A stretch of 64,000 bases of DNA from an uncultured Muribaculaceae bacterium. Its GTDB lineage: Bacteria; Bacillota_I; Bacilli_A; RF39; UBA660. Each line of letters starts with the position of its first letter. The first letter of the stretch is position 1. The notes below the pieces were generated by a model that did not search any database, was not told the DNA's origin, and worked only from the letters and a program-made list of their open reading frames with translations. Location of the stretch: NCBI GenBank assembly GCA_964472425.1, contig CAYYLF010000001.1, positions 6,595 to 70,594 of the forward strand. The letters run 5' to 3'. Of this stretch, positions 26,138 to 59,800 are shown one piece after another. A program made the translations under genes and the position numbers.

Positions 26138-26155
26138 ACTATAAAGGAGGTGCGT

Positions 26156-26485
26156 ATGAAGCGATATGAAATGATAAAGGATAAGGAGCGATTCAACTAT
26201 ATTATAAGGAAGGGACATTATAATAAGGATAAGTATTACGTCGTTTATCATGTGCCGGCGTCAGAAGATAGAGGAAGTCGGTTCGGAATTGCGGTCAAGA
26301 AGAGTCTCGGATGTGCAGTCGAACGAAATAGAGTCAAGCGGCAGACTCGCAGTATAGTCGATAATAACAAAAATCTATTTAAAAAAAATCGAGATTATAT
26401 TATAATGATAAGGAACGAATGTGTCGGTGGAAAATTCTCGGATATGAGTGAGTCGCTCGTCACATTGTTGAAAGGAATAAAATAG
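26156..26485 (+). CDS. rnpA: RNase P protein component
   Basis: Basic RnpA fold motifs. ATG at 26156 has an AAGGAGG RBS; the track's GTG start at 26150 lies inside that RBS. Confidence 0.9.
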   Translation: MKRYEMIKDKERFNYIIRKGHYNKDKYYVVYHVPASEDRGSRFGIAVKKSLGCAVERNRVKRQTRSIVDNNKNLFKKNRDYIIMIRNECVGGKFSDMSESLVTLLKGIK

Positions 26486-27481: not shown

Positions 27482-27486
27482 TATAT

Positions 27487-28098: not shown

Positions 28099-28167
28099 AG
28101 TGTCTTTTTTCTTTACAAATTCGTTCGTTTGGTGTATATTAATAGGCATTCGAAGGGGGATTTTAGT

Positions 28168-28908: not shown

Positions 28909-28995
28909 TCTAGCAAAGGAGGGCTAAACGGTTAGGCCCTTTAATTATCGCGATTTTTTTGATATAATGGGAGAGCGAAAAGAGGAGGTGCTTTT

Positions 28996-30342: not shown

Positions 30343-30347
30343 TTTAG

Positions 30348-32913: not shown

Positions 32914-32965
32914 TAAAGTAAACTAGTTATAAGTAGAAGAATAAAAAGTAAAGGGGCAGACGCGT

Positions 32966-34117
32966 GTGAATAATGAACAAGTTCAAGAGATATTTGTCGA
33001 AGATATCATACCTAATAGATTTCAACCTAGGCTCACTTTCGATGAGAAGGCATTACAGGAACTGTCCGACTCGATAAAAGTCCACGGGGTCATTCAGCCC
33101 TTGGTGTTGAGGAAAGTCGGGAACAAGTACGAGATAATTGCCGGGGAGCGTAGGTACAAAGCATCATGTATGGCGGGATTAAAGAAGGTACCCGCGATTG
33201 TGCGCGAGCTAACGGACAACGAGAGTGCGGAAATCGCTTTAATCGAGAATATTCAAAGGAAAAATTTATCCAGTATAGAAGAGGCTCAGAGTTACAAGAA
33301 TCTCTTGGAAAGAGGTTATTTGACTCAGGATGAGTTGGCGAAGAAGTTGGGAGTGTCTCAACCTACTATTGCGAATAAATTGCGGCTTTTGAATCTTTGT
33401 GACGAGGTGCAGAATGCCCTTTTGAACGAACAGATTAGTGAGCGGCATGCGCGGAGTTTACTCCAAATTACTAATCCGGATGAACAGAAGAAGATGCTCA
33501 ATCGCATAGTGAAGGAGCGTCTGACGGTCAAACAGTTGGATAACGAAATCAAGAAGTTGTCGCAAGCAGATAGCGAAGCGGCTGGACAGGCTTCGGGAGA
33601 TAATTCTGGAGGAGGAATGGTTATGGAACCAAATGGACAGAATGTAGAAACGGGTATGAATGGCGTTCAGGAGCCACCAAAGCCTACGAAGAATATCTTC
33701 GGTTTTGCGATGGAGCCTCCTACGGATTTGGAGACTAGTGCACCGAATTTGACGGTAGGTGAGGAAGAGTTCGTTCCACCAATCAGTTTCAATCCGTTTG
33801 GGGGCGATACACAGAACAGTGTCCAACCCAACGAGACGGTTCTTCCACCGGTCAGTGAGCCGGAAACTATCGAAACGTTCGATATGTTTGGAGATGTCAT
33901 GAAGCCAGAGGAGCCAGCACCTAGTGCACCGTTCAGTTTCGATGCAGGAGTCAATCCTCAAGGTGCGCCGGTGGCAAGTGCTCCGCGCAGTGTCGGGGAC
34001 GAGATAAACAGCATCAGAGAAGCCGTCCGCGGAGCCGAGGCCGATGGTTTCCGAGTAGAATTAGAAGAGTACGATTTCGAAGATATGTATCAAATCGTGA
34101 TAAAACTCAAGAAGTAA
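32966..34117 (+). CDS. noc: ParB-family CTPase with Noc-type DNA-recognition residues (Noc-like); long disordered C-terminal linker and Spo0J-like terminal dimerisation helix
   Basis: ParB N-domain and GERRY CTP-binding motif at 60-64. HTH region VSQPTIANKLRLLNL...ISERHARSL is closer to B. subtilis Noc (GQSTIANKLRLLKL...ITERHARAL) than to Spo0J (SRPHIANHLRLLTL...LSMGHGRTL). It directly follows rsmG, as noc does. GTG start with an AAAGGGG RBS. Confidence 0.75.
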   Translation: MNNEQVQEIFVEDIIPNRFQPRLTFDEKALQELSDSIKVHGVIQPLVLRKVGNKYEIIAGERRYKASCMAGLKKVPAIVRELTDNESAEIALIENIQRKNLSSIEEAQSYKNLLERGYLTQDELAKKLGVSQPTIANKLRLLNLCDEVQNALLNEQISERHARSLLQITNPDEQKKMLNRIVKERLTVKQLDNEIKKLSQADSEAAGQASGDNSGGGMVMEPNGQNVETGMNGVQEPPKPTKNIFGFAMEPPTDLETSAPNLTVGEEEFVPPISFNPFGGDTQNSVQPNETVLPPVSEPETIETFDMFGDVMKPEEPAPSAPFSFDAGVNPQGAPVASAPRSVGDEINSIREAVRGAEADGFRVELEEYDFEDMYQIVIKLKK

Positions 34118-42207: not shown

Positions 42208-43072
42208 ATGGTGAAGGTACTCACATGTCTTTCGCGTCGCAGGGCGGTGATGAAGTTGAACAAAGAAAATAAGACAGTCGTACAGGCGAAGTTTTTGCAC
42301 AATTTCTTCGTCACTAAACTGTTGAGAGACGAGAGTTTGAAAGATTATCTTCAATTTGATTCTACACAAAGCGACTGGTGTAGCTCTCGAGAAAATAAAG
42401 AAGGACTTCAGACTTCTCGACATAAAGATAAGCAAGGCTAGTGGCATCAAAGACGAAGAAGTAGACTTGATTGCCAAGTGCGACGAGTATATCTTCAACA
42501 TAGAGGCCAATCGTTTGAACAGAAAATACATAATAAAGAAGAATACCTCCTACATTTGCAATCTAATCATGAGACAAACCGAAAACGGAATTAAGACGAA
42601 TTATCAGAATATAAAGGGAGTATATCAAGTGTGTTTGAATCTTTATGACCATTTCAGAGTAGGAAAGTTCGTATATAATTCTACTATTATGGAAAAAGAC
42701 TTACGACTTTCTAGAACGGACCTGGCAAACATTACAGATATAGACATAGATAAATTATCTAAAATAGATTATAATACTATCAAAGAGAAGAAAGACTCGC
42801 TCGAGTACTTGCTGTACATATTCGCGAACAGTAATCACGAAGAATTAGACGAAATATACGAAGGAAGTGAAATTATGAAAAGAGTAAAAGAGAAAGCGTA
42901 CAACTTAGAAAAGAATGCCGACAGATACCTGATATACAGTCACGACGACATGATGAAGGCCATCGGTGAAGAAGAAGGAGAAGAAAGAGGCCAAGAAAGA
43001 GAAAAAATAGCAAGTGCCCGCAAGATGCTCATGAGAAAATTTGAAATAGAAGACATAATGGACATCACTTGA
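42208..43072 (+). pseudogene. Frameshifted Rpn/YhgA-like PD-(D/E)XK nuclease and putative transposase (77-aa N-terminal ORF plus 238-aa ORF in the +1 frame)
   Basis: The two overlapping ORFs are in different frames (42208-42441 and 42356-43072). The C-terminus EGEERGQEREKIASARKMLMRKFEIEDIMDIT has the Rpn-family tail. Confidence 0.45.
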
Positions 43073-43401
43073 CTACCCTTAGAAAAGATAAACGAGATAA
43101 AGAAAAGTATACTCGAATTTCCAGAATAAAAAAGTCTATGCGTATGTGATGGTGAGAAATTGACTGGTTTAGAGACCGATAAAGGTTGAGAGTGGAATTA
43201 CAATAATGTGTTTGCCATAATTTAGTATCGAAGATACAGAAGTTTTGGGTGGTGGTAGAACCTTTCGTATCTTATTCCAATTTATTTATTCGATAAGACC
43301 GATGTATCGCTTTTATTTTTGCTCGATATGCGAATTGCTTGACCCTTTTTGTAGAAAAAGATATACTTATATTGATTTATTTTAAGAGAGGAAATAGTAA
43401 T

Positions 43402-45693
43402 GTGAATGAAGTATGCAAAAAAATATTTGCTTTTTTAAAAGAAAAAGGAATCATAATCGTATCTATCATATCGATATTGCTTATCTGTTATGTTCATTCT
43501 GTGAGGGCATCTTATTCGGTCGATTTTATACCCATTAATGGAACGTTTCAGAATTTTAATGTCGTAAGAAGGTTATTAGATGGGCAGGTACCCTTTAAAG
43601 ATTTTTCGATATATTTAGGATTAGGGCACTTGTTTTTGGGAAGTTTTTTTACCAGTTTTTTCGGAGGAAGTTTTTCTAGTAGTTTGGTGGCTTTTTCTTT
43701 TCTAGCCAAATTGGCTTTATGCGCACTTTCTCTAATCGTAGGTAAATGTGTATTGGGCAAAGACAGTCGAGTACCTTATACGATAACAACGGTAGTTTTA
43801 ATCGTTACGATATTACTAGAAGATGCGGAATTATACGAAGTGCCCATCATAAAAGATTTTATAGTTTCTTTGACGGCGGGATTGAGTACAGGCAATTCGG
43901 CGAGATTTTTGAGAGGTATGATTTTGCCTTTGGTAATCGGATTAACTTACTTTGCGTCATGGTTAATCGATGTGTTAGCAAAAAAGAAAGAATGGAAAAA
44001 TAAGACGGTCGATAATTTAAAATTAATTATTGCTTCTGTTATTGCGGGGGTTTCGTTTCTCTGGAGTAACGATTACGGCATAGCCTGTTTCGTCTGTTAT
44101 GTCATTATGCTCTTAGTATTGACTTTTTTCCGAACGAGAAGTTTATCGAGAACGGCAATAACTTTTGCAAAAAGCATGTCCATTAGTGTGCTCGCCGTGT
44201 TCGTCGTCGTATTTATAATTACGCGCGGCAACGTCGGGTCTTGGTTACTCAATATGCTCGGGACAGGTGGTACACAGGCATGGTATTACGGGGTTAGAAA
44301 GGTCGAGAAGTCGTTTTATTTGTATGATATAAACTTCGACTTTTTGGCAAGTCTCGTCGGGATTATGTGTCTATATTATTTTTTTGAATTACTCAAATCA
44401 TCTCTTAAAGGCGATGGGAAAATAGATTATAGGTCTTCGATACTTTGTTATATGACCATGACTTCTTATGCGGCAATCAATGAGTATAAGTTGTTGAGCG
44501 GAGGGTCTCTTACCGAGGTCGCTTATTCAGTTTTGTTTTTTATATTAATATACGAAGTTTTAGGTTGGTTAATAAAGATATCGAAAACGAAAAAATGGGA
44601 AAGTTTTCTGCTCGTCGGTGGTTCGATTTTCGGTTTCGGATTTCTCGTGTATGGTGTATACGATACATGTAATCTCTTTAAGATACACGATAAATGCGCG
44701 TACGTCGATGAGTTGGGAGGATATTTGTACAAGTATCGAAATAGTTTGAAGGATGCCCAGGAATTGCTAGGTGAAGAAAAGGTGTTTTCGACTTATGCTT
44801 CGGCATTGGAGACTGTTACGAGTCAGTTTCAACCGTCGGGAATAGACTACATTATACATGCCTTGGGCGACCAAAAAAGGGATGCGTATATGGATACGTT
44901 TAGAAAAGGCGACTTTAGGTATGTCACGACCATAAGAGAATGTGTATCCGACTATGCATATTGGATTAAGAATGCCAATTGGTTCTTTTATAGGGAATTG
45001 TACGACAATTATGTTCCAGTTTATAGTAACGAATACGAAATATTTTGGGAGAAAAGTGACGAGGTCGGCAAGATAGAAAATGACGATATAGATGTCAAAA
45101 TAGAGAAGATAGATGAATCGAATGCGATTATCAAAGTTAAAACCGACGAATCGGTGAGCGGCATAGCAGATGTAAAACTTCGTTATGCCATCAGGCGAAC
45201 CGATAATTTATCGGCAAAATTGGTCATGAACAAATTTTTGTTTTTAGATGATGTGAATGAACATTATTTGCAAACGTATATGGATTTTAGTAGATGGTTC
45301 TTACCATCCGAAAGTGAAGAGTATGTTCCAATTACAATCATCGATGGTGAAGGCGAACTTCTTCTGTCGAGTTTACCTTCAAAGGATACAGTTTTAGAAG
45401 TAGAGTCGGTCTCTTGTGATACGATATATACTACGTATTTCGATTTTGCTCAACTAGAGAAAAATTTTCATGTCGACCAAAAAGAAGGAGCTGTAACGGT
45501 GTTAGTCGAAAATGAAAAGCGAATACGGTATGTTTTGGAAGGTGCAGAAAAAGCAATAATCGGCAGTAAGCAATTCAAAATTTTGAATATAAATTCGAAT
45601 CAGGATATGTACACGATAACTCTCGATTACGAAGGTAAAGACGATTTTGCGGATGTTCTCGATGGGACAAATATTTTATTCGTCAAGAATTGA
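43402..45693 (+). CDS. Large polytopic membrane protein (about 12 TM helices plus a roughly 330-aa C-terminal extracytoplasmic domain); putative GT-C-type glycosyltransferase
   Basis: GTG start with a GAGAGGAAA RBS; the ORF-track 5' extension has no Met. Function inferred only from context. Confidence 0.55.
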   Translation: MNEVCKKIFAFLKEKGIIIVSIISILLICYVHSVRASYSVDFIPINGTFQNFNVVRRLLDGQVPFKDFSIYLGLGHLFLGSFFTSFFGGSFSSSLVAFSFLAKLALCALSLIVGKCVLGKDSRVPYTITTVVLIVTILLEDAELYEVPIIKDFIVSLTAGLSTGNSARFLRGMILPLVIGLTYFASWLIDVLAKKKEWKNKTVDNLKLIIASVIAGVSFLWSNDYGIACFVCYVIMLLVLTFFRTRSLSRTAITFAKSMSISVLAVFVVVFIITRGNVGSWLLNMLGTGGTQAWYYGVRKVEKSFYLYDINFDFLASLVGIMCLYYFFELLKSSLKGDGKIDYRSSILCYMTMTSYAAINEYKLLSGGSLTEVAYSVLFFILIYEVLGWLIKISKTKKWESFLLVGGSIFGFGFLVYGVYDTCNLFKIHDKCAYVDELGGYLYKYRNSLKDAQELLGEEKVFSTYASALETVTSQFQPSGIDYIIHALGDQKRDAYMDTFRKGDFRYVTTIRECVSDYAYWIKNANWFFYRELYDNYVPVYSNEYEIFWEKSDEVGKIENDDIDVKIEKIDESNAIIKVKTDESVSGIADVKLRYAIRRTDNLSAKLVMNKFLFLDDVNEHYLQTYMDFSRWFLPSESEEYVPITIIDGEGELLLSSLPSKDTVLEVESVSCDTIYTTYFDFAQLEKNFHVDQKEGAVTVLVENEKRIRYVLEGAEKAIIGSKQFKILNINSNQDMYTITLDYEGKDDFADVLDGTNILFVKN

Positions 45694-45702
45694 TATAAAA
45701 AA

Positions 45703-45740
45703 ATTCGAAAACTTTGGGACACAAGTTTCGAATTTTTCTT
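45703..45740 (+). terminator. Rho-independent terminator (ATTCGAAAACTT...AAGTTTCGAAT followed by TTTTTC)
   Basis: 11-bp stem followed by T-run. Confidence 0.6.
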
Positions 45741-45762
45741 TTAACATTAATTTTCGTTTTCC

Positions 45763-45791
45763 TTGACCTAATCAGTTAAAAAAGTTATACT
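45763..45791 (+). promoter_or_regulatory. Promoter TTGACC, 17-nt spacer, TATACT for the glycosylation operon
   Basis: Read directly in the sequence. Confidence 0.45.
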
Positions 45792-45827
45792 AAATTTGTG
45801 AGATGATAAGGAAGGATGTAGTGTTTT

Positions 45828-46760
45828 GTGAAGAAAGTGCTCGTTGGATATACGGGGTTCGTCGGATCAAATATTTGTGAGCAAACGAATTTCGATTTTT
45901 TATATAATAGCAGCAATATAAAAGAAGCATACGGCACTAGACCGGATTTGCTCGTTTACAGTGGGGTTCCTGCCCAAAAATTTTTGGCCAACAAAAATCC
46001 AGAGAAAGATTCTTCTTCGATAGATGACGCGATTGAAAATATACGTCTCATAGACCCAAAAAAGGTTATTTTGATATCGACTATCGATGTCTACAAGAAT
46101 CCTGTAGGAGTAGATGAGAATTCGAAAATAGAAAAGGTCGGTTTGGAAGCTTACGGCAGAAATCGCCTTCGTTTAGAGGAGTGGGTCAGAGCCAATTACG
46201 AGGATGCTCTCATCGTACATCTTCCAGCTTTGTACGGGAAAAATTTGAAGAAGAACTTTTTATATGATATGATTCATATAATTCCGAGCATGATTATAGA
46301 AGATAAGTTTTTAGAACTAGCGAAGAGCGATGCGAGTTTGCTAACTCACTATACGAAGGACGAGAACGGTTTTTATAGGTACGATAAAATTCCCTATCGC
46401 GAAGAGGAAAAGAAGATGAAAGAATTTTTTCAAAAAAGCAATTTTACAGCTTTGAATTTTACCGACAGTCGAGCGTCTTATCAATTTTATAATTTAAAGT
46501 ATTTGTGGAAACACATCGAAATCGCTTTAGAAAACGACATAAGAGTTTTAAACTTGGCGACCGAGCCTATAAAGGCGAGCGAGGTTTATTCTTATGTAGA
46601 AGGAAAAGATTTCAAAAACGAAGTGGCGGCGAGTCCTATTAGATACGATTTTAAAACCGTATACGACGAGGTGTACGGTGGAAAAGATGGATACATCTTC
46701 GATAAGGATTTTTTGCTTCGCGATATCGCGGAGTTTATAGGGAGCGAAAGAGATGCGTAA
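45828..46760 (+). CDS. NAD(P)-dependent sugar epimerase or reductase (Rossmann fold GYTGFVG)
   Basis: N-terminal GxxGxxG motif. Sits in a sugar-modification operon. Confidence 0.55.
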   Translation: MKKVLVGYTGFVGSNICEQTNFDFLYNSSNIKEAYGTRPDLLVYSGVPAQKFLANKNPEKDSSSIDDAIENIRLIDPKKVILISTIDVYKNPVGVDENSKIEKVGLEAYGRNRLRLEEWVRANYEDALIVHLPALYGKNLKKNFLYDMIHIIPSMIIEDKFLELAKSDASLLTHYTKDENGFYRYDKIPYREEEKKMKEFFQKSNFTALNFTDSRASYQFYNLKYLWKHIEIALENDIRVLNLATEPIKASEVYSYVEGKDFKNEVAASPIRYDFKTVYDEVYGGKDGYIFDKDFLLRDIAEFIGSERDA

Positions 46761-47547
46761 GTTCAAGTATGCTATTTCCAATATAGGTTGGGATAGAGAA
46801 TTCGATGAAGAGATGTACGTTTTCTTAAAAGAGGCTGGATTTGTGGGACTAGAAATCGCTCCGACGAGAATATTTGAAGAGAGTCCTTATGAAAAATTGG
46901 ACGAAGCGCGTGCATTCAAAGAAAATATCGCTTATAGATACGGATTAGAAGTGTGTTCTATGCAGTCGATTTGGTTTGGAAAAATGCAGAATATATTTGC
47001 AAATAAAGAACAGAGAGACGAGTTAATCGAATACACGAAGAAAGCCATCGATTTTGCCGAAGCAATCGGATGTCCAAATTTAGTTTTCGGTTGTCCACGC
47101 AATCGCAAGATGGAATCAATCGACGAGAAAAATTTGCAAGTCGCGAACGATTTCTTTAACGAAATCGGAGATTACGCTTCCAATAAAAACGTCGTCATAG
47201 CGCTCGAACCGAATCCGGCTATATATGACACGAATTTTTTGAATACGACGAGCGAGGCTATAGAGTTCGTAAGGAGTCTCAACAACGATGCGATTAAAAT
47301 AAATTGTGATTTAGGGGCAGTCATATACAACGAGGAGAATATCGATATCATTTTGGAGAACATCGACATTGTAAATCACATACACATCAGTGAGCCGAAT
47401 TTAGTTTCCATCGTTCGTCGAGAAATGCACAGAAAATTGTTCGATGCATTAGAAGTAGTCGGATACGGCAAATACGTCTCGATAGAGATGAGAAAGAGCG
47501 AGATAGAGGTAGTCGAAGAGGTAATAGAATATGTCGGGAATATCTAG
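46753..47547 (+). CDS. Sugar phosphate isomerase/epimerase (xylose-isomerase-like TIM barrel)
   Basis: Family pattern recalled from memory; moderate confidence. Confidence 0.5.
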   Translation: MRKFKYAISNIGWDREFDEEMYVFLKEAGFVGLEIAPTRIFEESPYEKLDEARAFKENIAYRYGLEVCSMQSIWFGKMQNIFANKEQRDELIEYTKKAIDFAEAIGCPNLVFGCPRNRKMESIDEKNLQVANDFFNEIGDYASNKNVVIALEPNPAIYDTNFLNTTSEAIEFVRSLNNDAIKINCDLGAVIYNEENIDIILENIDIVNHIHISEPNLVSIVRREMHRKLFDALEVVGYGKYVSIEMRKSEIEVVEEVIEYVGNI

Positions 47548-48358
47548 AAAAGAAGTGAAGATTATGTATAAGAATATCGCAGGTGTACCAAATTTTGAAT
47601 GTCACGAGTTTGCTAAAAAGAAAAGAGATTATTGTCTTTGCATTCCCATCATCAACGAAGGTGAACGCATAAAAAAAGAGTTGGAAAGAGCGTTAGAAAG
47701 CGGTGTGAAAAATTGGGTGGATATCATCATATGCGATGGCGATTCGACGGACGGGTGCACAGAAGAGAATTTGCTTAAATCGTTAGGTGTCAATACTCTG
47801 CTCGTCAAGAAGGACGAAGGTAAGCAGGGTGCTCAACTACGAATGGGATTTTGGTGGGCTTTGGAAAGAGGCTACAAGGGAATAGTCACCATCGACGGGA
47901 ACAACAAAGACAGTATCGAAGATGTTTCCGCGTTCGTCGAGAAGTTGGAAGAAGGATACGATTTTGTGCAGGGTTCTCGATTTATCGTAGGTGGCGAGGC
48001 CATCAACACGCCTCTTATTAGAACGTTATCCGTCAGGCTCATCCATGCTCCCGTCATATCTTTGACAGCCGGTAAACGGTATACGGATACGACGAATGCT
48101 TACAGAGCTTATTCGAGAGCATATTTGAATCACGAGGCGGTAAGACCGTTTAGAGATATTTTCATGACATACGAGTTACTAGCATATTTGTCAGTTCGAG
48201 CAGATCAACTCGGGATGAAGACTTGCGAAATACCGGTTAGAAGAGAGTATCCGAAGGATGAGAAAACTCCGACGAAGATAAGTTTTTTCAAAGGGAATTA
48301 TCAGCTTTTAAAGATACTTTTCTGCAATATGTTCGGAAAGTATAAACCTAAGGATTGA
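47531..48358 (+). CDS. Family-2 glycosyltransferase (polyprenyl-phosphate sugar synthase-like)
   Basis: GT-A motifs CIPIINEGERI and DGDSTDG and a QGSRF segment. Confidence 0.6.
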   Translation: MSGISRKEVKIMYKNIAGVPNFECHEFAKKKRDYCLCIPIINEGERIKKELERALESGVKNWVDIIICDGDSTDGCTEENLLKSLGVNTLLVKKDEGKQGAQLRMGFWWALERGYKGIVTIDGNNKDSIEDVSAFVEKLEEGYDFVQGSRFIVGGEAINTPLIRTLSVRLIHAPVISLTAGKRYTDTTNAYRAYSRAYLNHEAVRPFRDIFMTYELLAYLSVRADQLGMKTCEIPVRREYPKDEKTPTKISFFKGNYQLLKILFCNMFGKYKPKD

Positions 48359-48364
48359 TGGATT

Positions 48365-49486
48365 ATGAAGTACGATAAAATAATTATAGGCGCGGGTATA
48401 TACGGTTTGTATGCAGCTTCGTTTTGTGGCAAAAAAGGGGAAAGGGTATTGGTTCTAGAAAAAGAGAGTGAGGCTTTCAATCGAGCAACTTACATCAATC
48501 AGGCGCGGGTGCACATGGGGTATCATTATCCCAGGAGTTATTCGACGGCAATCAAGTCGGCTAACTATTTTGAACGATTCAATGAGGATTACGATTTTTC
48601 AATTTTGAAAGAGTTCGACCAGGTGTATGCGACATCTTCTAATTTCTCATGGACGAGTGCCGACGAATTTGAAAAGTTTTGTCGTAATGCAAATATCGTC
48701 TGTGAGAAAATAGCGACGAGCAAATATTTTAACGAAGGGGTGTGCGATGGGGCTTTTTTGACGAAAGAGTACACTTACGACGCCCGTATATTGAGGGACT
48801 ACTTTTTAGAGGAGATAGCTAAGTTCGACAATGTCGACATAAAATACGATTCCAAAGTAATTGCCATCGAAAAGCACGAGAGGACTTACGAGGTCATCTT
48901 GGAAAATGGCAATTCGTTCGAGACGGGGTATTTGCTCAATGCGACGTATGCAGGAGTGAATCAGATTCTTTCGATGCTCGACTTGGAGCACTTTAAAATA
49001 AAGTACGAACTTTGCGAGATAATCTTGTGTAAGGTAACAGAAAAATTTAAAGATGTCGGTATAACAGTTATGGATGGTCCTTTTTTCTCGATTATGCCAT
49101 TCGGCAAGACGGGATATCATTCCTTGACCGCCGTGACGTTCACTCCTCACAAGACATGCTACGAGACTTTGCCGGAGTTTGAATGTCAAAATAGGAGCAA
49201 GGGATATTGTACAAAATACGATTTGGGAAATTGTGATAAGTGCATCGCCAAGCCACAAAGTGCTTGGCCATATATGTCCAATTTGGCTAGGAAGTATTTG
49301 AAAGAAGAGTACGGGTTCGAGTATGTGAAGTCGCTTTATTCGATGAAACCGATTTTGAAGGCTTCCGAAATAGATGATTCGCGGCCGACGATCATCAAAG
49401 TATTCACGACTAATCCAACTTTCGTAAGTGTTCTATCAGGAAAAATCAATACAGTATACGATTTAGACGAGGTGTTAGAGTTATGA
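48365..49486 (+). CDS. FAD-dependent oxidoreductase (Glf/DprE1-like, with a Cys-rich insert)
   Basis: N-terminal dinucleotide-binding motif IIIGAGIYGLYAA. Confidence 0.55.
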   Translation: MKYDKIIIGAGIYGLYAASFCGKKGERVLVLEKESEAFNRATYINQARVHMGYHYPRSYSTAIKSANYFERFNEDYDFSILKEFDQVYATSSNFSWTSADEFEKFCRNANIVCEKIATSKYFNEGVCDGAFLTKEYTYDARILRDYFLEEIAKFDNVDIKYDSKVIAIEKHERTYEVILENGNSFETGYLLNATYAGVNQILSMLDLEHFKIKYELCEIILCKVTEKFKDVGITVMDGPFFSIMPFGKTGYHSLTAVTFTPHKTCYETLPEFECQNRSKGYCTKYDLGNCDKCIAKPQSAWPYMSNLARKYLKEEYGFEYVKSLYSMKPILKASEIDDSRPTIIKVFTTNPTFVSVLSGKINTVYDLDEVLEL

Positions 49487-50418
49487 AGTATAAAGAAAAG
49501 AATTTCGTGTCGGTCGTCGCTTATGTCCACGATGCCGAAAAGACGGTGGGTAAATTTATCGCGAGCATCGATGAGGTTTTGAGAGAAAAATTCTTGCATT
49601 ACGAAATAATATTGGCAAACGACGCGTCTTGTGACGACTCGGTCAAGGTGATAAAGGAAGTCGCGGCAACGTGTACTAATGCATGTATAAGCATTTTGAA
49701 TATGAGCCATTTTCAGGGGAAAGAGCTGACCATGAATGCCGGACAAGATTTGGCAATCGGCGATTTTGTCTACGAATTCGACACGACCGTCATCGATTAC
49801 GACGTGAGTATAGTGTTCGACGTTTATAAAAAGTCGTTAGAGGGGTACGATGTCGTCAATGTCTCTTCGAATAGGAAGAGGAAGATATCTTCGAAGATGT
49901 TTTACAAAGTTTTCAATAAGTTTTCCAATTATCAGTATAAGCTGGATACCGAGACATTCAGAATATTATCTAGAAGGGCTATTAATAGGGTCAATCAAAT
50001 AAACAAGACCGTTCCGTATCGAAAGGCCGTTTTGGCCAACTGCGGCTTGAAGCTCACTCGTGTCGAGTACGAGTCGATTGCCGATGTGACTACCGAAAAA
50101 AACGAGATGATGAAAGAGGAGAGAGAGAAGAATGCTTTCGATGCGCTCATCTTATTTACGAATGTCAGTTACAAGATAGCAACGGCCTTGATATTCGCTT
50201 TCATCTTCATCACTTTGTGTGTACTCGGATATACGGTGTACATATTCGTGAGTAGTGAGCCAATCGAAGGCTGGACGACGACCATGTTGTTCTTATCGTT
50301 CGGCTTTTTAGGTATGTTCAGCGTCTTGGCAATAATAATCAAATATTTGTCTGTGATAGTCGGGTTAGTATTTAAAAAGACCGATTATTTGATCGAATCT
50401 ATCGAAAAGCTGAATTAG
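49483..50418 (+). CDS. GtrB-like family-2 glycosyltransferase with two C-terminal TM helices
   Basis: GT-A fold (ILANDASCDDS) plus C-terminal TM helices, typical of polyprenyl-phosphate glycosyltransferases. Confidence 0.6.
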   Translation: MKYKEKNFVSVVAYVHDAEKTVGKFIASIDEVLREKFLHYEIILANDASCDDSVKVIKEVAATCTNACISILNMSHFQGKELTMNAGQDLAIGDFVYEFDTTVIDYDVSIVFDVYKKSLEGYDVVNVSSNRKRKISSKMFYKVFNKFSNYQYKLDTETFRILSRRAINRVNQINKTVPYRKAVLANCGLKLTRVEYESIADVTTEKNEMMKEEREKNAFDALILFTNVSYKIATALIFAFIFITLCVLGYTVYIFVSSEPIEGWTTTMLFLSFGFLGMFSVLAIIIKYLSVIVGLVFKKTDYLIESIEKLN

Positions 50419-50430
50419 AGGATTTCCATT

Positions 50431-52431
50431 ATGAATGAGATTAAAACTATTTTTAAAAAGGGCCAGTGGATGTACGGCTTTTCGGCTCTGGTTGCCATCT
50501 ATTTTTCTTATCTATTCGTAAGAACCGGGATATTCGAAATTAGAAGTGCAATCATAATCTCTGGTGTGGCTGTGGGCTTGGCCGAATTGGTCACTAGGCA
50601 TTTTTTAAATCGAAGCCTCAGTTTTCGTGTCGACGATAGGCGGGTAAGAACAAAGTTCTTTGTCGGGGTGTTGGCGATTGCTATAGTAATTACTTGGTGT
50701 GGAAGGGTCTTTTTGAGTTACACTTATACCGATTGCGAGGTACATATCGAGTCTAGTCGGAGCGGAGAAATAAGTTTAAACGACATCGACACGATTATCG
50801 TAGGGAACGTCGTCTATAAAAATGACGGGACTAATTTTGTAAGCGAGTACGATGCGTCGGTCGGCCAAAATGACGGATGGGTGAAAAGTATAGTCGGTGA
50901 GGATGAGATAGTAGTACAGGTAAAGAAGAGTTCGTCCGTCAAGATAATGTTTAGCAGTACGCACGAAGATTTGGTCGTGACGGACGGGGAGAAGGTCACG
51001 GATATCGTAGTGAGCAACCGAAAGGATATATACGTCGTCAGTTCGAATAAACGGACCGACATTTATTCGATAGTGCGCGCAGTTTTATCACTCGCATCGG
51101 TCTATTATGTCTTCATGATTGTCTCTATATTCATCGTGAATGCACGCGATAAAAGGGAGAAATATTTAATATTGACTGGCTTAATCGCATGCGGAATAGG
51201 ACTATTTTATCTTTTGGATTCGTACATTCTTTTGACGCCCGATTCGTACGAATACATCGATTTCGATTTTGGCAATATTTTAAGATTTCGTCCCAACGAG
51301 CGAGTTTTGTTATATCCGCTAGTGATATCGATTATGAAAGTTTTATTTTCCAATCGTTTTTTGGAGTTCACGGTTTTATTCCAATATGCAGTATGGCTAA
51401 TAAGTATAGTATATTTATATAAAACTATCGAGTTGTTGACAAGGAAGCCGATGCTTTCGATGGTAGGCTCCATCGTCTATGCTATCGCACCTTTTGCGGT
51501 CGTCTGGAACGGATGCATTTTGACGGAGTCTCTCGCTCTTTCGATGACTAACATTTTCATATATTATATGCTCGCGTACGTGAAGAACAATCGAACTATC
51601 TACGGTATAGTGAGCATCATCTTGTCTTTGGTAATGACGTTTATAAGACCGACTTCACTCATATTTTTGCTTGGAATATTGGCGTTCTTTATCTTGCGGT
51701 TCATTTTCGACGGGCGAAGGAAAAGTGATATGACGTGTATCAAATTTAATGGATGTGCCTTAATTTTGGTCGGTCTATATGCGATTTGTTTCAACAACGT
51801 ATACGGGTTTTATTCGATAAGTTCCGTGATGCCGAGGCAGCAATTGATGGTGGTCATGCGGGAAGGCTTTTATAAAAAGAGCAGTGATGAAGAGTTTATC
51901 ACCAACGTAGAAGAAGCTTATGAAAGTACTCCGGGTTCGGAAATTAAATATAGCGATTTCGAATGGAGTGCGATGAAAAAAGTATTAGAGAAGTATTCTT
52001 TGGTCGAAGTTCGGGAGCGAACTCGCGAGTGTTTCAAGAAAAATAGAAAAGAGTATATATCTTATTTGGTGGGATTAATTTTGTCCTACAGTACTACAAA
52101 TTTCTTCGGTTATGGAGGAGAAAGCATGAATCCCGCGACATCGTTTATACGCGATACTGTCCTCAATTCTTTTGCTTTACTGACGTTTATGCACGTCTAT
52201 ATTCTAATATGTGTTCAAATATTTATGACGATTGTCGAATGGGTTAAGACTAGGAAGATACCTTGGATACATTGCGGATTGTTCGTTTTTCCTATGGTCA
52301 TAGTTTTATCGTCGTTCATGGGGACTTGCGCCGAATTTATGAGGACGGCCGCGTGTTGTGTGCCGTTTGCGTATTTGATATTTATTGCGACTATGAGTAA
52401 ATTGTTCAATGGAGGTAAAGAGAATCTATGA
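50431..52431 (+). CDS. Large polytopic membrane protein, putative GT-C-type glycosyltransferase (ArnT/PMT-like topology)
   Basis: More than 12 TM helices, with an extracytoplasmic loop at residues 100-200. Confidence 0.5.
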   Translation: MNEIKTIFKKGQWMYGFSALVAIYFSYLFVRTGIFEIRSAIIISGVAVGLAELVTRHFLNRSLSFRVDDRRVRTKFFVGVLAIAIVITWCGRVFLSYTYTDCEVHIESSRSGEISLNDIDTIIVGNVVYKNDGTNFVSEYDASVGQNDGWVKSIVGEDEIVVQVKKSSSVKIMFSSTHEDLVVTDGEKVTDIVVSNRKDIYVVSSNKRTDIYSIVRAVLSLASVYYVFMIVSIFIVNARDKREKYLILTGLIACGIGLFYLLDSYILLTPDSYEYIDFDFGNILRFRPNERVLLYPLVISIMKVLFSNRFLEFTVLFQYAVWLISIVYLYKTIELLTRKPMLSMVGSIVYAIAPFAVVWNGCILTESLALSMTNIFIYYMLAYVKNNRTIYGIVSIILSLVMTFIRPTSLIFLLGILAFFILRFIFDGRRKSDMTCIKFNGCALILVGLYAICFNNVYGFYSISSVMPRQQLMVVMREGFYKKSSDEEFITNVEEAYESTPGSEIKYSDFEWSAMKKVLEKYSLVEVRERTRECFKKNRKEYISYLVGLILSYSTTNFFGYGGESMNPATSFIRDTVLNSFALLTFMHVYILICVQIFMTIVEWVKTRKIPWIHCGLFVFPMVIVLSSFMGTCAEFMRTAACCVPFAYLIFIATMSKLFNGGKENL

Positions 52432-52763
52432 AGGAATCGATAAAAAAGAACAAAAAGGGGATATCGCTCATGCTCCTTTCTTCTTTGTTCGTCTGTGTGG
52501 GACAGCTATTTTGGAAGTTGTCGAGTGAAAATGTGTTTTATCTATTCGGAGGATTCGGTCTCTACGGTATAGGTGCTTTCGTGATGTTGTACGCCTATAA
52601 GTTTGGCAGTTTATCGGTCTTACAACCGATGCTCAGTGCCAACTACGTATTTACTATAGTGCTCGCGACAATCGTTTTGAAAGAGGAGATGACCGTTTTG
52701 AAAGTGTTGGGTGTACTAGTCATCATCTTAGGAGTCGTCTTCATAGGGGGAGGGGACGAATGA
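52428..52763 (+). CDS. Small 4-TM EamA/SMR-like protein (ArnE-like flippase subunit)
   Basis: 111 aa with four TM helices. Its stop overlaps the start of a paralog. Confidence 0.55.
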   Translation: MKESIKKNKKGISLMLLSSLFVCVGQLFWKLSSENVFYLFGGFGLYGIGAFVMLYAYKFGSLSVLQPMLSANYVFTIVLATIVLKEEMTVLKVLGVLVIILGVVFIGGGDE

Positions 52764-53086
52764 AGTATTTTGTGATGTTACTTGCCATGACTTTAATCGG
52801 GTCGGTTGCATCTTTCTTTTTAAAGAAGGCTTCTAGGAGTGAAACGATAGTAGATTTGGTGAAAAATAAACACATATACATCGGCGGTTTTTTGTATTTG
52901 ACGTCGGCGGTCATCAACATAATCGTTTTGAGATATTTAGATTATTCGGTCGTCTTGCCACTTACGGCTGTCACGTACATATGGACTCTTTGTATTTCGC
53001 AGGTTTTTTTGGGCGAGAAAATCACTTTCAAGAAGGTCCTCGGAATCGTCTTCATCTTAGTGGGAGCTGTTTTTATTGCTTGGTAA
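52760..53086 (+). CDS. Small 4-TM EamA/SMR-like protein (ArnF-like flippase subunit)
   Basis: 108 aa, adjacent paralog of the preceding ORF. Confidence 0.55.
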   Translation: MKYFVMLLAMTLIGSVASFFLKKASRSETIVDLVKNKHIYIGGFLYLTSAVINIIVLRYLDYSVVLPLTAVTYIWTLCISQVFLGEKITFKKVLGIVFILVGAVFIAW

Positions 53087-54505: not shown

Positions 54506-54535
54506 ATGCTTTGTTTCGAAAGGGGATTTTTAATA

Positions 54536-56086
54536 ATGGCAAATAAGAGACAAAAGAAGAAGCAAGCCCGAAGATTAGAGGCTGCTAAGTTAGAACAATT
54601 GAGAATAGATAGTGAGAATCTATCAAAAGAGACTTCACTTTGGGTAGAAGATGACAATTTAGTTGGACAAATCGAAGACGACAAGGATTCATCTTCAATT
54701 GAGGAAGAAGTCGAAAAAATTGAAGAAGAAGAGGAGAACGAAAAAGGGTTCGGTTTCTGGTTTAAAAGAAACAAGGTCAAAGTTTGCGCGGCAGCGGCAG
54801 CTTTCCTCTTGGTCGGGGGCGTAAGTATTTATGCATTCGGACCATTTGGTAAGAACAAAAACAAAGATAATAATAAGGACCCTAAGGAGTCCGAGACGAC
54901 ATTCGTAGATCCAACTATGGAGCCAACTAGTGAACCTAGTTATGCCGTGCCTAATCCTAGCGAATGGATTACTCTCGACCCCGAACCTAGTGAGTCATTA
55001 GAAATCGTAGATCCAGAGCCAACCGTTTCTATACCGGCTGGGGTGGTGACTTGGAGACCAAATGGTAAACCTGTATTACCTTCATTGAATCCAATCAATT
55101 CAGAAGAAGTACATACTTTTGGAGAATGGGCTTACTTCGATAAGGATAACGAGTCTAGGACTTGTGCGGATTGTGGTGTAGTCGAATACAGACCACACTT
55201 ATTTACGCACAATAAAACGTTTACTCAACTCGGAAACAATGGTAAGCACGCTGTAAAAGATGTAGTTCATTGTGAGAGTTGTGGGTTCGATACAGTTTTG
55301 AGTTATGAGGAGTCTTGTAATCTCGAAGTTACTACTTACGATTCTAAGTACGAATATTTGGTATGTTCCGATTGTGGGGTGAAGCTAAAAAGGGAGCATA
55401 AACTCGACAAAGGGACGGATTACGGAAGTGGAATCACTTACAAATGTACTAACAAGGGATGTAATTATACGAAGGCAATAGACTACGATCCAGTTCATTC
55501 GGATGACGATTTCGGGCATACAAACGAACCAAGTTATTCGGATGACCCGGTCATCACGAGTAGACCTACACCTCCTCCATCAGCTGCACCTAGTGCTGCA
55601 CCATCTGCGGAGCCTTCGGCTGAACCTTCGGCAGAGCCTAGTGCTGAACCTTCGGCAGCACCTTCAGATCCTACCCATGGCGGTTTGAATCCAGATGTCG
55701 TCGTGACAGATGCACCACCATCTGAGTCGGATGAGTGGGGCAAAGGTGACGTCGAGGTTCCAGGCCAAAGCCCAGATCCAGTCGAATCAGACGAATGGGG
55801 AACAGGCGATGTAGAAATGCCTAGTAAGCAACCTGAACAAAACAATAATCAAAACGATAACAACAATAATCTCGGTAGTGATGACGAGGACGAGTTTGGA
55901 ATGCCAGACGATATGGAGACACCTATTAAAAAGGCTAGTGACCCAGAACCGGCTCCAGCACCACAGCCTACTCCTGTAGCAGCTTTACAAGGAAAAATAG
56001 ACTTTTTGAAGAGTCTAAAAGACAATTTGATGGCTTGGATGCCTAATGCAAATATGGACGACTCAAAGAAGGGTCCTAGACTCTAA
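54536..56086 (+). CDS. Membrane-anchored extracytoplasmic protein with four CxxC Cys-rich modules and an (EPSA)n/PSAA linker
   Basis: Basic N-terminus, TM helix VCAAAAAFLLVGGVSIYAF. Cys-rich modules CADCG, CESCG, CSDCG and CTNKGC. Repeat EPSAEPSAEPSAEPSAAPS. Confidence 0.6.
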   Translation: MANKRQKKKQARRLEAAKLEQLRIDSENLSKETSLWVEDDNLVGQIEDDKDSSSIEEEVEKIEEEEENEKGFGFWFKRNKVKVCAAAAAFLLVGGVSIYAFGPFGKNKNKDNNKDPKESETTFVDPTMEPTSEPSYAVPNPSEWITLDPEPSESLEIVDPEPTVSIPAGVVTWRPNGKPVLPSLNPINSEEVHTFGEWAYFDKDNESRTCADCGVVEYRPHLFTHNKTFTQLGNNGKHAVKDVVHCESCGFDTVLSYEESCNLEVTTYDSKYEYLVCSDCGVKLKREHKLDKGTDYGSGITYKCTNKGCNYTKAIDYDPVHSDDDFGHTNEPSYSDDPVITSRPTPPPSAAPSAAPSAEPSAEPSAEPSAEPSAAPSDPTHGGLNPDVVVTDAPPSESDEWGKGDVEVPGQSPDPVESDEWGTGDVEMPSKQPEQNNNQNDNNNNLGSDDEDEFGMPDDMETPIKKASDPEPAPAPQPTPVAALQGKIDFLKSLKDNLMAWMPNANMDDSKKGPRL

Positions 56087-56886: not shown

Positions 56887-59800
56887 ATGGCAACTAATAA
56901 TAAAAAAGTTAAGAATGTAGCATTGGGAGTTACTGCGGTTACGGCTGCAGTTGCCAGTGCATATACAATTACAAATTTGATGTTTAAGGAAAGGGATTAT
57001 AGCGATGTTTTGGTCGAGTCTGCGAAGAAGTACGTAGAGAACAACAACTTGACTATCGATTCTAAGTTGGTAGTAGGCGTACCTGAGCTTCGCGAGTCTG
57101 GAAGTTTAGTCAAAGATTTGGGCGGAAACTTCGACGACGACAGTTGTGCGGTCGGTAACGACGACGGAAGTCTCACGGCGCATGAAGCATGTCCTGTCCC
57201 ACTCGCAGATGAAAATGAGGAAGTTGCAGAGTTAGCTTATAATTTGAGTTCTACGTTCCAGAAAGGTACTATTTCGGGAGTCGATTATAAGAGATTAGCA
57301 GTCAGCGTAGTTTTCAATAAACCAGTTAGTGTCCAAGGCGGTATCGATTGGACTGTTTCCAGTGATGGAAGAACTGCTACCAAGTATTACTATGCGCAAG
57401 AAAGCGAGTCTTTGGTGTTCAGTACGCTCGATGGAGAAGAAACAGTATCTATCAATATAGAAGCTACTGGTGATTTCAATCCAAAGAACGTCAATACTTC
57501 ACCTAATATCAAGGTGAACGGAGCAACTTTGCCTATCATCTCAAATACGATAAATACCAAGTTGGACGGCAAAACTAAACGTGGTATCAAGTTCTTCGAT
57601 GGTGTTGCGCTCGATTACGACGCGGCCGTATTGGAATTTACTTCCGGTAAGGATAGTGCAGGTAAGACGAGTCCTACGACAGCAATTCTTTATAAATACA
57701 ATGAAGATGGTACACTCGGTGTAGGTATCCAAAAGGGTAACAAGTCCGAGGTCGCAGGAGAAGGAAGATATAGACTCGTAGTCAGCAGCGAGGCTGGTGA
57801 AGTCATTCGCGATTTCTCTATAGATAATACTGCTCCAGAAGTAAGAGTTTATGTCGTCGACGAAAACGGCAATAAGGGTGCCGAATTGACCAACAGTTCG
57901 GTCGAGGCCGTTCGCGTGACTAACAAAGACGTAATGGTCGAGTTTAGTGATAAGTATTCTAACGTTACGGCCGAGTTGACTGGTAGAGTTCTAGAAGTTT
58001 CTATGGGCGAAGTATTCAGCAACGAACAGGAATACGAGATTACGGCTACAGATGCAGCTGGACATACAGCTACGGCCAAGTTTAGAATCAACAAAGCTGT
58101 TCCTACAATCGAAGGTGTCGAATCTGGTGCTCATTATAAGGAAGCTAAGTCTATAAGTTTCGACAAAGAGAACGTAAAGGTCACTTTGGATACTATAGAC
58201 GGTGAAGAAGTCGACGCCGAGAATAATAATTTCGGTGAGGGAACTCATACTATCGTCGTAAGTGACAGAAATAATGCAGATAACAATGTAACTATCACGT
58301 TCGTAGTGGACTTACATGCTCCTACATTCAACGGTTTTGCCGAAGGCGAAGATACTATCAAGACACCTGACGATTTCGTAGTCAGAGCAAACGACGATTA
58401 TCTCGCATCTACAGTCGTCAAAAAGGGAGACACCGTCTTAGAAAATGTCACCACTTTGGACGAAGAGGGTACTTATACTCTAGTTGCTACAGATAAGGCC
58501 GGAAACGAGACAGTCAAGACGGTCGTAGTCGACAAGAACGCTCCTAAGGTAACTTTGGCTGGTGTCGAGTATCAAAGCGAGGACAACGAACCTATAACAA
58601 TCGATGTACCTTTCGAAGGTGAAGAGGGTGTGACGTTCGACGTATCCGATACTATCGATGAGAACCCTACATATACTTTGGTCAACTCTAAGGGCCAAAC
58701 TATCGAAGGTAAGACCGTCACAGCAAATGGAACTTATACTTTGACCGCGGAGGATGAAGTTGGTCACAAGACTATCGTCAACTTCATAATCGCAAGAGGC
58801 GTTCCTACAGTCACTTTGAATGGTACGACTATCGAGGACGATACTGCTCGTTATTATAAGGAAAACGTCGAAATCGAAATTGGTGGAGAGATGGAAATCA
58901 CCGGTGCCGTATTGGAGAAGAAAGTCGGAGAAACTTACGAAAAAGTGGTCGATTTGACCGATACTTACGAGGTCGCGACGGACGATGAGACTCACAACGA
59001 GTACAGAATCGCCGTATCTTACGTCGGAAGCGACGAGGCATTCGTAGTCAACTTTGTAATAGATAAGAAGATGCCTACTGTCGATGTAGCAAGTGGTACT
59101 TATGGTACCGATAAGGAAATTTCTTTCGACGACGAAAGCGGCATAAAGAGTGCATCTATCATCGAAAATGGTGTGGAACGTGCTCTCACAGCAAGCGAAT
59201 TGGCTTCTAAGAAGGTTTCTTTGGAAGAGGATGGCACTTATACTTTGAAACTCGAGGATATGGCCGAAAACGGTAAGTCTTTCGATTATACTATAGATAC
59301 GACTCCTGCAAGCGTAGTTTTCAGTGTTCCTGGTAAGGATGCCGAAGGCAACGACATCATGGTTACCGTTCCTAAGACGGAAGAGGAAATGAAGAGTACT
59401 ATGTACTTCAACAAGAATGTCACTTTGGCATTCGAGGACGCACTTTCCGTCATAAAGGTTACCGTAGATGGTACGGAAGTTCAGTCTATAAGTGCCGACT
59501 TAGGCGGTTCTAAGACTTATACTACTACTTTGACGGAAGGACCTCACAAGGTCGTCGTCGAAGATTTAGCTGGCAACAAACGCGAGTTAGATATAGTAGT
59601 CGATACCGTTTTACCTGGTGGTTCTCTATCTACGACGAATATTTACGACGAGAAAGACCCTAAAAAGGTAATCGGCGTGAGAGTCACTTTGGCTACCGAC
59701 GAAGAATATACGAGAGAAAGCGCCGATACGTGGACTCCAGTCGAGGGTGAAACGAACAAGTATTACTTAGACGTAATGGTCGAGAGTAAGGAAGTTAGTG

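Follow-up and report, generated by a model that had tools for sequence, protein, structure and literature searches.

To our knowledge, DprE1/DprE2, a leading tuberculosis drug target, and their homologues are essentially the only established case of redox epimerisation of a sugar on its lipid carrier. These enzymes, together with ORF13, a recently described epimerase that works at the lipid stage as a single short-chain dehydrogenase/reductase (SDR), act on pentofuranoses carried by undecaprenyl phosphate (Und-P) or decaprenyl phosphate (PMC11127046). Here we describe a locus in a 64,000-nucleotide stretch of contig CAYYLF010000001.1 (assembly GCA_964472425.1), hereafter the window, in which eight genes at 45828-53086 encode two proteins of glycosyltransferase family 2 (GT2a and GT2b), a large polytopic protein (GTC666), two small EamA membrane proteins and three soluble enzymes: a flavin adenine dinucleotide (FAD) enzyme (FAD373), a triosephosphate isomerase (TIM) barrel (TIM264) and an SDR (SDR310). 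We propose, with a probability of roughly 0.55, that this locus is an extracytoplasmic glycosylation system of the three-component type with built-in remodelling of its donor through a keto intermediate, carried out by the three soluble enzymes, which we call the trio.

The proposed chemistry combines the precedent of DprE1/DprE2 and ORF13 with the epimerisation of 3-keto glycosides by enzymes such as YcjR. As in DprE1/DprE2, one enzyme would use flavin to oxidise the sugar to its keto form and another would reduce it with NAD(P)H, a set-up that would be coupled genetically to a flippase and to transferases of the glycosyltransferase C fold (GT-C), which act on the lipid-linked product at the outer side of the membrane. 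There is no homology between the two sets of enzymes, however: FAD373 belongs to the DAO/GlpD type whereas DprE1 is a VAO-type FAD_binding_4 protein, and SDR310 is an extended, RmlD-like SDR with a Y-x-x-x-R motif whereas DprE2 is a classical SDR. The present locus also has a third enzyme, the TIM-barrel epimerase, and its donor would be made by a GT2 from a nucleotide sugar, not by a UbiA-type phosphoribosyl pyrophosphate (PRPP) transferase. A sequence-only reading of the window had called FAD373 and SDR310 a DprE1/DprE2-like pair; the parallel holds for the oxidase/reductase logic and fails for descent. In the pentofuranose three-component systems (Kelly et al. 2024, PMC11127046), an Und-P donor is likewise epimerised, by ORF13 or by DprE1/E2 homologues, before flipping and GT-C transfer. 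In these systems, however, a UbiA-like synthase that has a phosphatase domain makes the donor from PRPP, a MATE protein flips it and a GT136 enzyme transfers it, all of which are absent here, and their epimerising enzymes are unrelated to the trio.

The remaining components resemble those of GtrA/B/C, CsbB-GtcA-YfhO, GtrB/PgtC2 and S. mutans PgfS/M1/E/M2, which combine a GtrB-type GT2 with small flippase-type proteins and variable polytopic transferases; Pgf further resembles our locus in its single GtrB-like GT2, its pair of large polytopic proteins and its epimerising function (PMC5856776, PMC12041528). By contrast, the sugar that these systems transfer is unmodified and is made at the nucleotide level, PgfE being of the UDP-sugar 4-epimerase type, and they include no flavoenzyme, no TIM-barrel epimerase and no soluble second GT2. 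The Arn pathway (ArnC, ArnD, ArnE/F and ArnT) comes close in having a GT2 that makes an Und-P-sugar, a modification of that sugar at the lipid stage, two flippase proteins of four transmembrane (TM) helices and a PMT_2/ArnT-like GT-C protein, but its lipid-stage modification is a deformylation rather than a redox epimerisation, and the ArnC, ArnE and ArnF models match the locus weakly, far below their equivalog cut-offs. Finally, E. coli YcjS/YcjR/YcjQ oxidise a substrate to a 3-keto glycoside, epimerise the adjacent carbon with an AP_endonuc_2 TIM barrel and reduce the product; YcjR interconverts D-gulosides and D-glucosides through 3-keto intermediates, as cited in PMC11543891 (its reference 23), and TIM264, which matches the YcjR structure, has the metal tetrad of this epimerase family. 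Unlike the enzymes described here, the Ycj dehydrogenases are NAD-dependent rather than DAO flavoenzymes or RmlD-like SDRs, and their pathway serves catabolism, with soluble glycosides as substrates. The locus belongs to none of the DprE1, DprE2, Glf, ArnE/F or ArnC families, and a literature search by component names found no description of the cassette. We regard it as a widespread, uncharacterised cassette that would remodel a glycosyl donor with convergent, non-homologous enzymology.

Gene content of the locus

Nine genes, all on the + strand, span 43.4-53.1 kb, and their translations equal the public gene calls exactly (one 81,928-bp NCBI contig). The sequence-only reading had the gene inventory, the coordinates and the strand right, although its prose gave the genes in the wrong order; the real order is as follows, with the 763-aa gene upstream of the others.

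43402-45693, + strand: 763-aa polytopic membrane protein, upstream of the operon (start 43402 as in the public gene call)
45828-46760, + strand: SDR310, 310-aa Rossmann protein, beginning after a 134-nt gap
46753-47547, + strand: TIM264, 264-aa TIM barrel
47531-48358, + strand: GT2a (GT2a275), 275-aa soluble GT2
48365-49486, + strand: FAD373, 373-aa flavoenzyme
49483-50418, + strand: GT2b (GT2b311), 311-aa GT2 with two C-terminal TM helices
50431-52431, + strand: GTC666, 666-aa polytopic protein
52428-52763, + strand: Eam111, 4-TM EamA protein, start codon overlapping the GTC666 stop by 4 nt
52760-53086, + strand: Eam108, 4-TM EamA protein

Of the seven junctions within 45828-53086, five are overlaps of 4-17 nt, and gaps of 6 and 12 nt separate the genes at the remaining two; because the junctions overlap or nearly abut, we treat the eight genes as one operon. 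All three classes that define a three-component system, namely a GT2 lipid-sugar synthase, small flippase-type proteins and a polytopic transferase, are represented in this operon, for which a function in three-component glycosylation is predicted from sequence. The parts of a lipid-carrier-dependent, extracytoplasmic glycosylation system that the sequence-only reading had recognised, namely a GT2 resembling GtrB, small proteins of the flippase type and candidate polytopic transferases, are indeed present.

Conservation of the core and exchange of its partners

FAD373 has orthologues, mostly 57-76% identical, in 60 genome loci recovered through this protein, 40 of which hold the cassette well inside a contig and are referred to as complete. 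The loci come from Clostridia, 'Bacilli' metagenome-assembled genomes, Lachnospiraceae, Oscillospiraceae, Bacteroidales, Treponemataceae, Sphaerochaeta and Hungatella hathewayi DSM 13479, a cultured species whose copy of the cassette falls inside NZ_CP102274.1 900,559-917,677. A check of neighbourhood conservation, as had been suggested from the sequence alone, showed that a five-gene core (SDR, TIM, GT2a, FAD and GT2b) is complete in 33 of the 40 complete loci. Because these belong to several phyla, the gene combination is not due to chance. The core occurs in two gene orders that are built from the constant blocks [SDR-TIM-GT2a] and [FAD-GT2b], and in nearly every locus with downstream sequence GT2b lies directly 3' of the FAD gene, usually in an overlapping frame.

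Gene fusions tie the trio together. SDR and TIM form a single protein of 572-597 aa in 11 loci, and distant relatives fuse a divergent TIM barrel to the flavoenzyme (hhalign against the TIM264 family: 92.9% probability, E 3.6e-7, with the E/D/H motifs aligned); in one relative, a GFO_IDH_MocA domain is fused to the flavoenzyme. A distant FAD-SDR-TIM trio (27%, 26% and 23% identity) lies at 10004-12483 of our locus L064, which is part of the 151,746-bp viral contig IMGVR_UViG_3300033073_001516. It has no four-cysteine insert of the kind described below, and its neighbours are Fringe-like, GT92-like and GT1-like glycosyltransferases, a GDP-mannose dehydratase and a UDP-glucose dehydrogenase; the trio may also serve virus-encoded glycan synthesis. 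Because of these fusions and the distant trio, we consider FAD, TIM and SDR to be one functional unit concerned with sugars. Carriage of the cassette by phages, as in Gtr-like serotype conversion, was considered and dropped, as a scan of IMG/VR gave only the distant trio and not the cassette.

The partners of the core vary. An EamA pair stands beside it in 9 of the 40 complete loci, and locus L067 has GtrA_DPMS_TM directly after GT2b instead. The polytopic partner is GTC666-like in nine loci, at the same place after GT2b, and belongs to the family of the 763-aa protein in five; elsewhere it is YfhO, GtrII (PF14264), DUF6020, DUF6311 or DUF2142, and of these YfhO and GtrII are established users of Und-P-sugars. 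Members of the 763-aa family sit between TIM and GT2a in L059, L061 and L062/L063, and because they are found inside the cassette there, the family appears to belong with it functionally. Many loci lie within varied polysaccharide clusters with Bac_transf, Wzx, Ugd, Glf or more glycosyltransferases, and some hold an extra, canonical GtrB-like GT2 (L043).

Two loci have settings of their own. At L061 824-14243 (Logan ERR14657509 contig), genes for a holin, an endolysin-like glucosaminidase and a resolvase immediately precede the cassette, which has what looks like a split SDR gene (202 + 93 aa) and an inserted Acyl_transf_3 gene; the copy may be decaying or linked to a prophage. At L066 8001-9770 (ODVC01000004.1), a TIM-FAD fusion adjoins an SNF2-type helicase and a thymidylate synthase homologue and has no SDR neighbour, a setting unlike the glycan loci.

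The putative redox trio

FAD373 matches the Pfam family DAO at 4.6e-13, and also the NAD_binding_8 and Pyr_redox families. The best Foldseek match of its AlphaFold 2 (AF2) model (mean predicted local confidence (pLDDT) 83) is E. coli GlpD (TM-score 0.75 on the query), followed by sarcosine oxidase, D-arginine dehydrogenase, L-2-hydroxyglutarate dehydrogenase and GlpO. Its best NCBIfam match is type 2 glycerol-3-phosphate oxidase (1e-11), and searches for direct matches among PDB sequences, even with profiles, gave none beyond the Rossmann stretch. FAD373 is a flavoenzyme of the DAO/GlpD fold that would putatively oxidise a sugar hydroxyl to a ketone. An identity as DprE1 was rejected, since Pfam finds no FAD_binding_4 domain and the fold is of the GlpD type, not VAO. 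Nor is it a plain UDP-galactopyranose mutase, an outcome that the sequence-only reading had counted, along with non-GT folds of the large membrane proteins, as fatal to its proposal: the Glf model TIGR00031 covers only residues 2-35, in the N-terminal Rossmann stretch, and scores 18.6 bits against a cut-off of 303.75, the Pfam search finds no GLF domain, and no such mutase is among the 50 Foldseek matches listed, the fold being of the GlpD/sarcosine-oxidase type. Relatives of FAD373 number in the thousands, with 417 representatives (50% clustering level) at E <= 1e-30.

The Cys-rich insert that had been noticed in this enzyme is real and conserved. The peptide CQNRSKGYCTKYDLGNCDKC, encoded at 49184-49243 on the + strand (translation confirmed), contains C274, C282, C290 and C293, all four of which are invariant in 59 orthologues. 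When 111 representatives and the query were aligned (112 sequences), all four cysteines were present in 50, with identities as low as 29%, none in 57 and an intermediate number in 5; the insert region is modelled at pLDDT 85-88. Because the pattern is all-or-none, the insert is probably a discrete metal site, for Zn or Fe-S, and this Cys4 module may take part in re-oxidising the flavin. Five more cysteines are conserved only among close orthologues.

TIM264 matches AP_endonuc_2 (Pfam, 2.6e-21). Its best NCBIfam matches are the 5-keto-L-gluconate epimerase IolO and psicose 3-epimerase, with hydroxypyruvate isomerase (Hyi) also matched at 2.3e-8, and its PDB matches include TM0416, D-tagatose and D-allulose 3-epimerases and 6wn6, the '3-keto-D-glucoside 4-epimerase' YcjR. 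Residues E152, D186, H211 and E245, which do not vary among 49 orthologues, fall on the Glu/Asp/His/Glu positions of TM0416 and D-tagatose 3-epimerase. By these resemblances TIM264 is a putative metal-dependent keto-sugar epimerase with a xylose-isomerase-like barrel. The sequence-only reading had mentioned the barrel in passing as a 'sugar isomerase'; the 11 SDR-TIM fusions, the several TIM-FAD fusions and the metal tetrad make it an integral third member of the set.

For SDR310, the Pfam models RmlD_sub_bind and Epimerase both score below threshold, and the best matches to a profile built from 14 orthologues are dTDP-4-dehydrorhamnose reductases (8g22, 1.9e-6). The glycine motif G7-x-T-G-F-V-G13 is conserved, with G7 invariant, as are S84 and Y109-G-x-N-R113, in which Y-x-x-x-R replaces Y-x-x-x-K. 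SDR310 is predicted to be an RmlD-like extended SDR and, putatively, an NAD(P)H-dependent keto-sugar reductase. It was rejected as a DprE2, having no adh_short match and Y-x-x-x-R in place of Y-x-x-x-K, with RmlD enzymes best by profile.

The two GT2 enzymes

GT2b scores above the Glycos_transf_2 cut-off of Pfam, with two predicted TM helices. Its residues 9-305 align to 28-327 of Synechocystis GtrB sll0501 (5eke/5ekp) at 7e-21, and it matches the PgfS model at 1.3e-20. This end-to-end alignment and the two C-terminal helices point to a polyprenyl-phosphate glycosyltransferase of the GtrB type. At the canonical GtrB motif positions GT2b reads F-D-T and E-T-F-R, with the variants E98-F-D100 and E157-x-F-R; the 'GDFR' Asp of GtrB is D157. 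Among 55 orthologues, E98 is kept in 48, D100 in all and E or D at 157 in 51. We considered whether GT2b is an inactive pseudo-enzyme and dropped the idea, as conserved acidic residues lie within one or two positions of the canonical ones.

GT2a exceeds the same Pfam cut-off (30.5 bits against 23.3), and its best NCBIfam models are AglJ (1.1e-12), PpgS (1.4e-9), Dol-P-hexose transferase and ArnC, all matched far below their equivalog cut-offs; its PDB matches are the dolichyl-phosphate mannose synthase (DPMS) 5mlz and ArnC. It appears to be a soluble GT2 of the DPM1/AglJ/PpgS/ArnC kind, for which we claim no specific orthology. The sequence D122-G-N124, invariant in 46 orthologues, aligns to D-A-D of GtrB and does not form a D-x-D motif, and N189 occupies the position of the GtrB 'GDFR' Asp. 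GT2a is 60-78% identical across loci.

Membrane proteins

Eam111 and Eam108 score 37.8 and 37.4 bits, respectively, against the EamA cut-off of 28.2 (Pfam). Their architecture, two adjacent overlapping genes for 4-TM proteins, is that of ArnE/ArnF, and they are predicted to be half-size flippase subunits. The name ArnE/F-like, which had been given to the pair, is apt for this architecture and goes too far for the family, since the ArnE and ArnF models reach only about 23-24 bits against cut-offs of 92-99.

GTC666 matches PMT_2 at 2.2e-5 and 25.2 bits, just under the cut-off of 26.1. Three of eight members of its family match PMT_2, and two carry PMT_2 in precomputed Pfam; a search for PDB sequence matches, even with profiles, gave none. 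On this evidence GTC666 is probably a PMT_2/ArnT-like GT-C transferase. The 763-aa protein ('memA784' family) has about 13-14 TM helices followed by a beta-rich C-terminal outer domain. Searches of Pfam, NCBIfam and PDB sequences, profiles included, found no match to it, and its 142 homologues are all unannotated. The three best Foldseek PDB matches of its AF2 model (pLDDT 92.3) are AglB 7e9s (6.5e-5) and ArnT 5f15/5ezm (2e-3 and 6e-3), at low TM-scores of 0.26-0.44, which makes it a candidate GT-C-type transferase on the strength of the model. A profile comparison with hhalign found no relation between the two large proteins. Their earlier designation as plausible GT-C transferases is only moderately supported for both, AglB and ArnT, which are GT-C enzymes, being the best fold matches of the 763-aa protein.

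Proposed pathway

In the pathway that we propose, a GT2 at the cytoplasmic face would load a nucleotide sugar onto polyprenyl phosphate, GT2b being the canonical GtrB-type enzyme for this step. FAD373 would then oxidise one ring hydroxyl to a ketone, metal-dependent TIM264 would invert the carbon adjoining the ketone, as ketose 3-epimerases and YcjR do, and SDR310 would reduce the ketone with NAD(P)H to give a stereochemically different, probably rare lipid-linked sugar. The two EamA half-transporters would flip this lipid-linked sugar outwards, and GTC666, probably also the 763-aa protein, would transfer it to a polymer or a protein of the cell envelope. We place the trio at the lipid-linked stage because the adjacency of FAD and GT2b is constant, because the core lacks genes for nucleotide sugars, and because we know of no nucleotide-sugar enzyme in either the AP_endonuc_2 TIM family or the DAO flavoenzyme family. 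The data show directly which genes are present, to which folds and families they belong, which catalytic motifs are conserved, and that there are fusions and a conserved neighbourhood; it is by inference that we assign this stage, the order of the steps, the identity of the sugar and of the acceptor, and the way in which the flavin is re-oxidised.

A number of observations weigh against this pathway. The sequences do not prove that the substrate of the trio is a lipid-linked sugar and not a nucleotide sugar or some other glycoside; the three enzymes lack TM helices and are soluble, and the distant trio of L064 lies among Leloir glycosyltransferases and a GDP-mannose dehydratase with no polyprenyl-phosphate GT2 nearby. 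A simple linear pathway does not explain two conserved GT2s, one of which, GT2a, carries Asn at two sites where GtrB has Asp. A crude TM count, which gives underestimates, finds the EamA pair in only 9 of the 40 complete loci and, in about one-quarter of them, no polytopic protein (at least eight TM helices) within 3.5 kb, although other membrane proteins were seen there. GT-C status is weak for both large proteins, with PMT_2 0.9 bits under its cut-off for GTC666 and those low Foldseek TM-scores for the 763-aa protein. Finally, the cassette encodes no electron acceptor for the flavin.

A more specific version of the proposal, which we offer tentatively and would put at somewhat less than even odds, is that gut anaerobes have a widespread pathway that edits a common polyprenyl-phosphate sugar into a rare epimer on the carrier through a relay of non-DprE enzymes, namely the GlpD-fold flavoenzyme with its optional Cys4 module, the TIM barrel and the Y-x-x-x-R reductase, that this portable cassette supplies many different flippase/GT-C pairs and thereby diversifies surface glycans, and that GT2a, with its D-G-N motif, is a specialised synthase or an adaptor for the lipid-linked sugar.

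Alternative explanations

The trio could instead remodel a soluble precursor, either a nucleotide sugar or a free glycoside, after which a GT2, perhaps GT2a, would load the rare sugar and the remaining proteins would form an ordinary three-component system. The solubility of the trio proteins fits this explanation, which draws its best support from the distant FAD-SDR-TIM trio in a Leloir-glycosyltransferase setting on the IMG/VR contig; in addition, the RmlD enzymes that are the closest solved relatives of SDR310 act on nucleotide sugars, and the strong conservation of GT2a fits specificity for an unusual donor. We nevertheless consider it unlikely. Nucleotide-sugar epimerisations normally rely on a single SDR or cupin with bound NAD, the TIM and DAO families contain, as far as we know, no nucleotide-sugar enzyme, and the closest characterised relatives of TIM264 use glycosides or free ketoses. 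The core is also accompanied by no nucleotidyltransferase, the FAD gene almost always directly precedes that of the membrane-anchored GT2b, usually in an overlapping frame, and the split between an FAD oxidase and an NAD(P)H reductase is the design with which DprE1/DprE2 act on lipid-linked sugars.

Less probable again, by a clear step, is a combination of two unrelated functions, in which GT2b, the EamA proteins and GTC666 form a plain Gtr/Arn-like system and GT2a and the trio act on a glycerol-phosphate, glycerate or polyol-type moiety or on a soluble glycoside. The closest folds to FAD373 do oxidise glycerol-3-phosphate, 2-hydroxyglutarate and amino acids, not sugars, its best NCBIfam model is a glycerol-3-phosphate oxidase, TIM264 also matches hydroxypyruvate isomerase, and some loci, such as L043, have an additional canonical GtrB-like GT2. 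By contrast, FAD and GT2b are adjacent almost without exception, and both blocks occur together in the 33 loci with a complete core, in two gene orders, which fits poorly with independent functions; the best matches of TIM264 are sugar epimerases rather than Hyi, SDR310 resembles keto-sugar reductases, and the surrounding genes are those of glycan loci.

A route that breaks down or salvages glycosides by way of 3-keto intermediates, lying merely beside glycosylation genes, would account for the resemblance of TIM264 to YcjR and ketose 3-epimerases and for the oxidase/epimerase/reductase logic shared with the E. coli ycj cluster, but is most improbable given that the core has two GT2s and no sugar transporter, glycoside hydrolase, phosphorylase or kinase, and that its partners are of the flippase and GT-C types in loci for polysaccharide biosynthesis.

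Genomic setting

The window is chromosomal and takes in the replication origin region (16571-34117). On one side of the origin, dnaA (24250-25674), dnaN, recF, gyrB and gyrA are on the - strand; on the other, yidC, mnmE, mnmG and parB are on the + strand, and prfA, prmC and spoIIR lie on that side too. The sign of the AT skew switches near 26 kb. Because of this set of genes, which includes spoIIR, we take the host to be a spore-forming Firmicute, and we regard the bacterium as Clostridia-like.

The genes of the cassette are followed by murA, at 53167, and are preceded by two promoter-like sites.

43339..43367, + strand: TTGACC-17-TATACT, 10/12 consensus matches, upstream of the 763-aa gene (consensus match only)
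45763..45791, + strand: TTGACC-17-TATACT, upstream of the eight-gene operon (consensus match only)

The regions 43280-43410 and 45700-45835 align around these common hexamers and spacing, with a mean column identity of 77% over the whole alignment. The matching upstream sequences hint that the 763-aa gene and the operon are co-regulated. Antisense open reading frames inside the operon (48806-49258, 49336-49746 and others) were set aside as chance frames within well-supported genes.

The cluster is somewhat more AT-rich than its surroundings, with a GC content of 0.35-0.41 against 0.42-0.46 in the flanks. A gene for a nuclease of the PD-(D/E)XK_2 'transposase' family, at 42356-43072, lies just upstream of the glycosylation genes and coincides with the onset of lower GC (0.35-0.37 between 42 and 46 kb, with flanks of about 0.44); together the two may mark the edge of horizontally acquired DNA. 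Across 42-57 kb we found no Rfam match, meaningful repeats or island boundaries.

Two surface proteins encoded downstream are candidate acceptors by proximity only. One, encoded at 54506-56086, is a membrane-anchored protein of 526 aa with no Pfam match, several CxxC-type Cys pairs and a (P-S-A-E/A) repeat tract, and could be an acceptor for O-glycosylation. The other is a giant surface protein, longer than 2,371 aa, which is encoded at 56887-63999, continues past the end of the window and has Ig-like surface domains and an N-terminal TM/signal anchor; it is the giant adhesin of the sequence-only reading, which had named teichoic acid and an S-layer as further possible acceptors. A search for Ser/Thr-rich acceptor stretches in the neighbouring surface proteins gave only the PSAEPS-type repeat of the 526-aa protein and nothing decisive; no Ser/Thr-rich tract above 33% was found in the giant protein.

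Implications

If the trio does remodel a lipid-linked donor, an unrelated enzyme set spread over gut Clostridia, Bacteroidales and spirochaetes would carry out an analogous and probably more extensive stereochemical editing than that of DprE1/DprE2, which would amount to convergent evolution of the same strategy. The flavoenzyme family offers enzymology a sizeable, unannotated target, half of the closer relatives examined carrying the Cys4 module. For the bacteria themselves, the pathway would place rare sugars on the surfaces of abundant commensals, with a bearing on immune recognition, phage receptors and glycoengineering.

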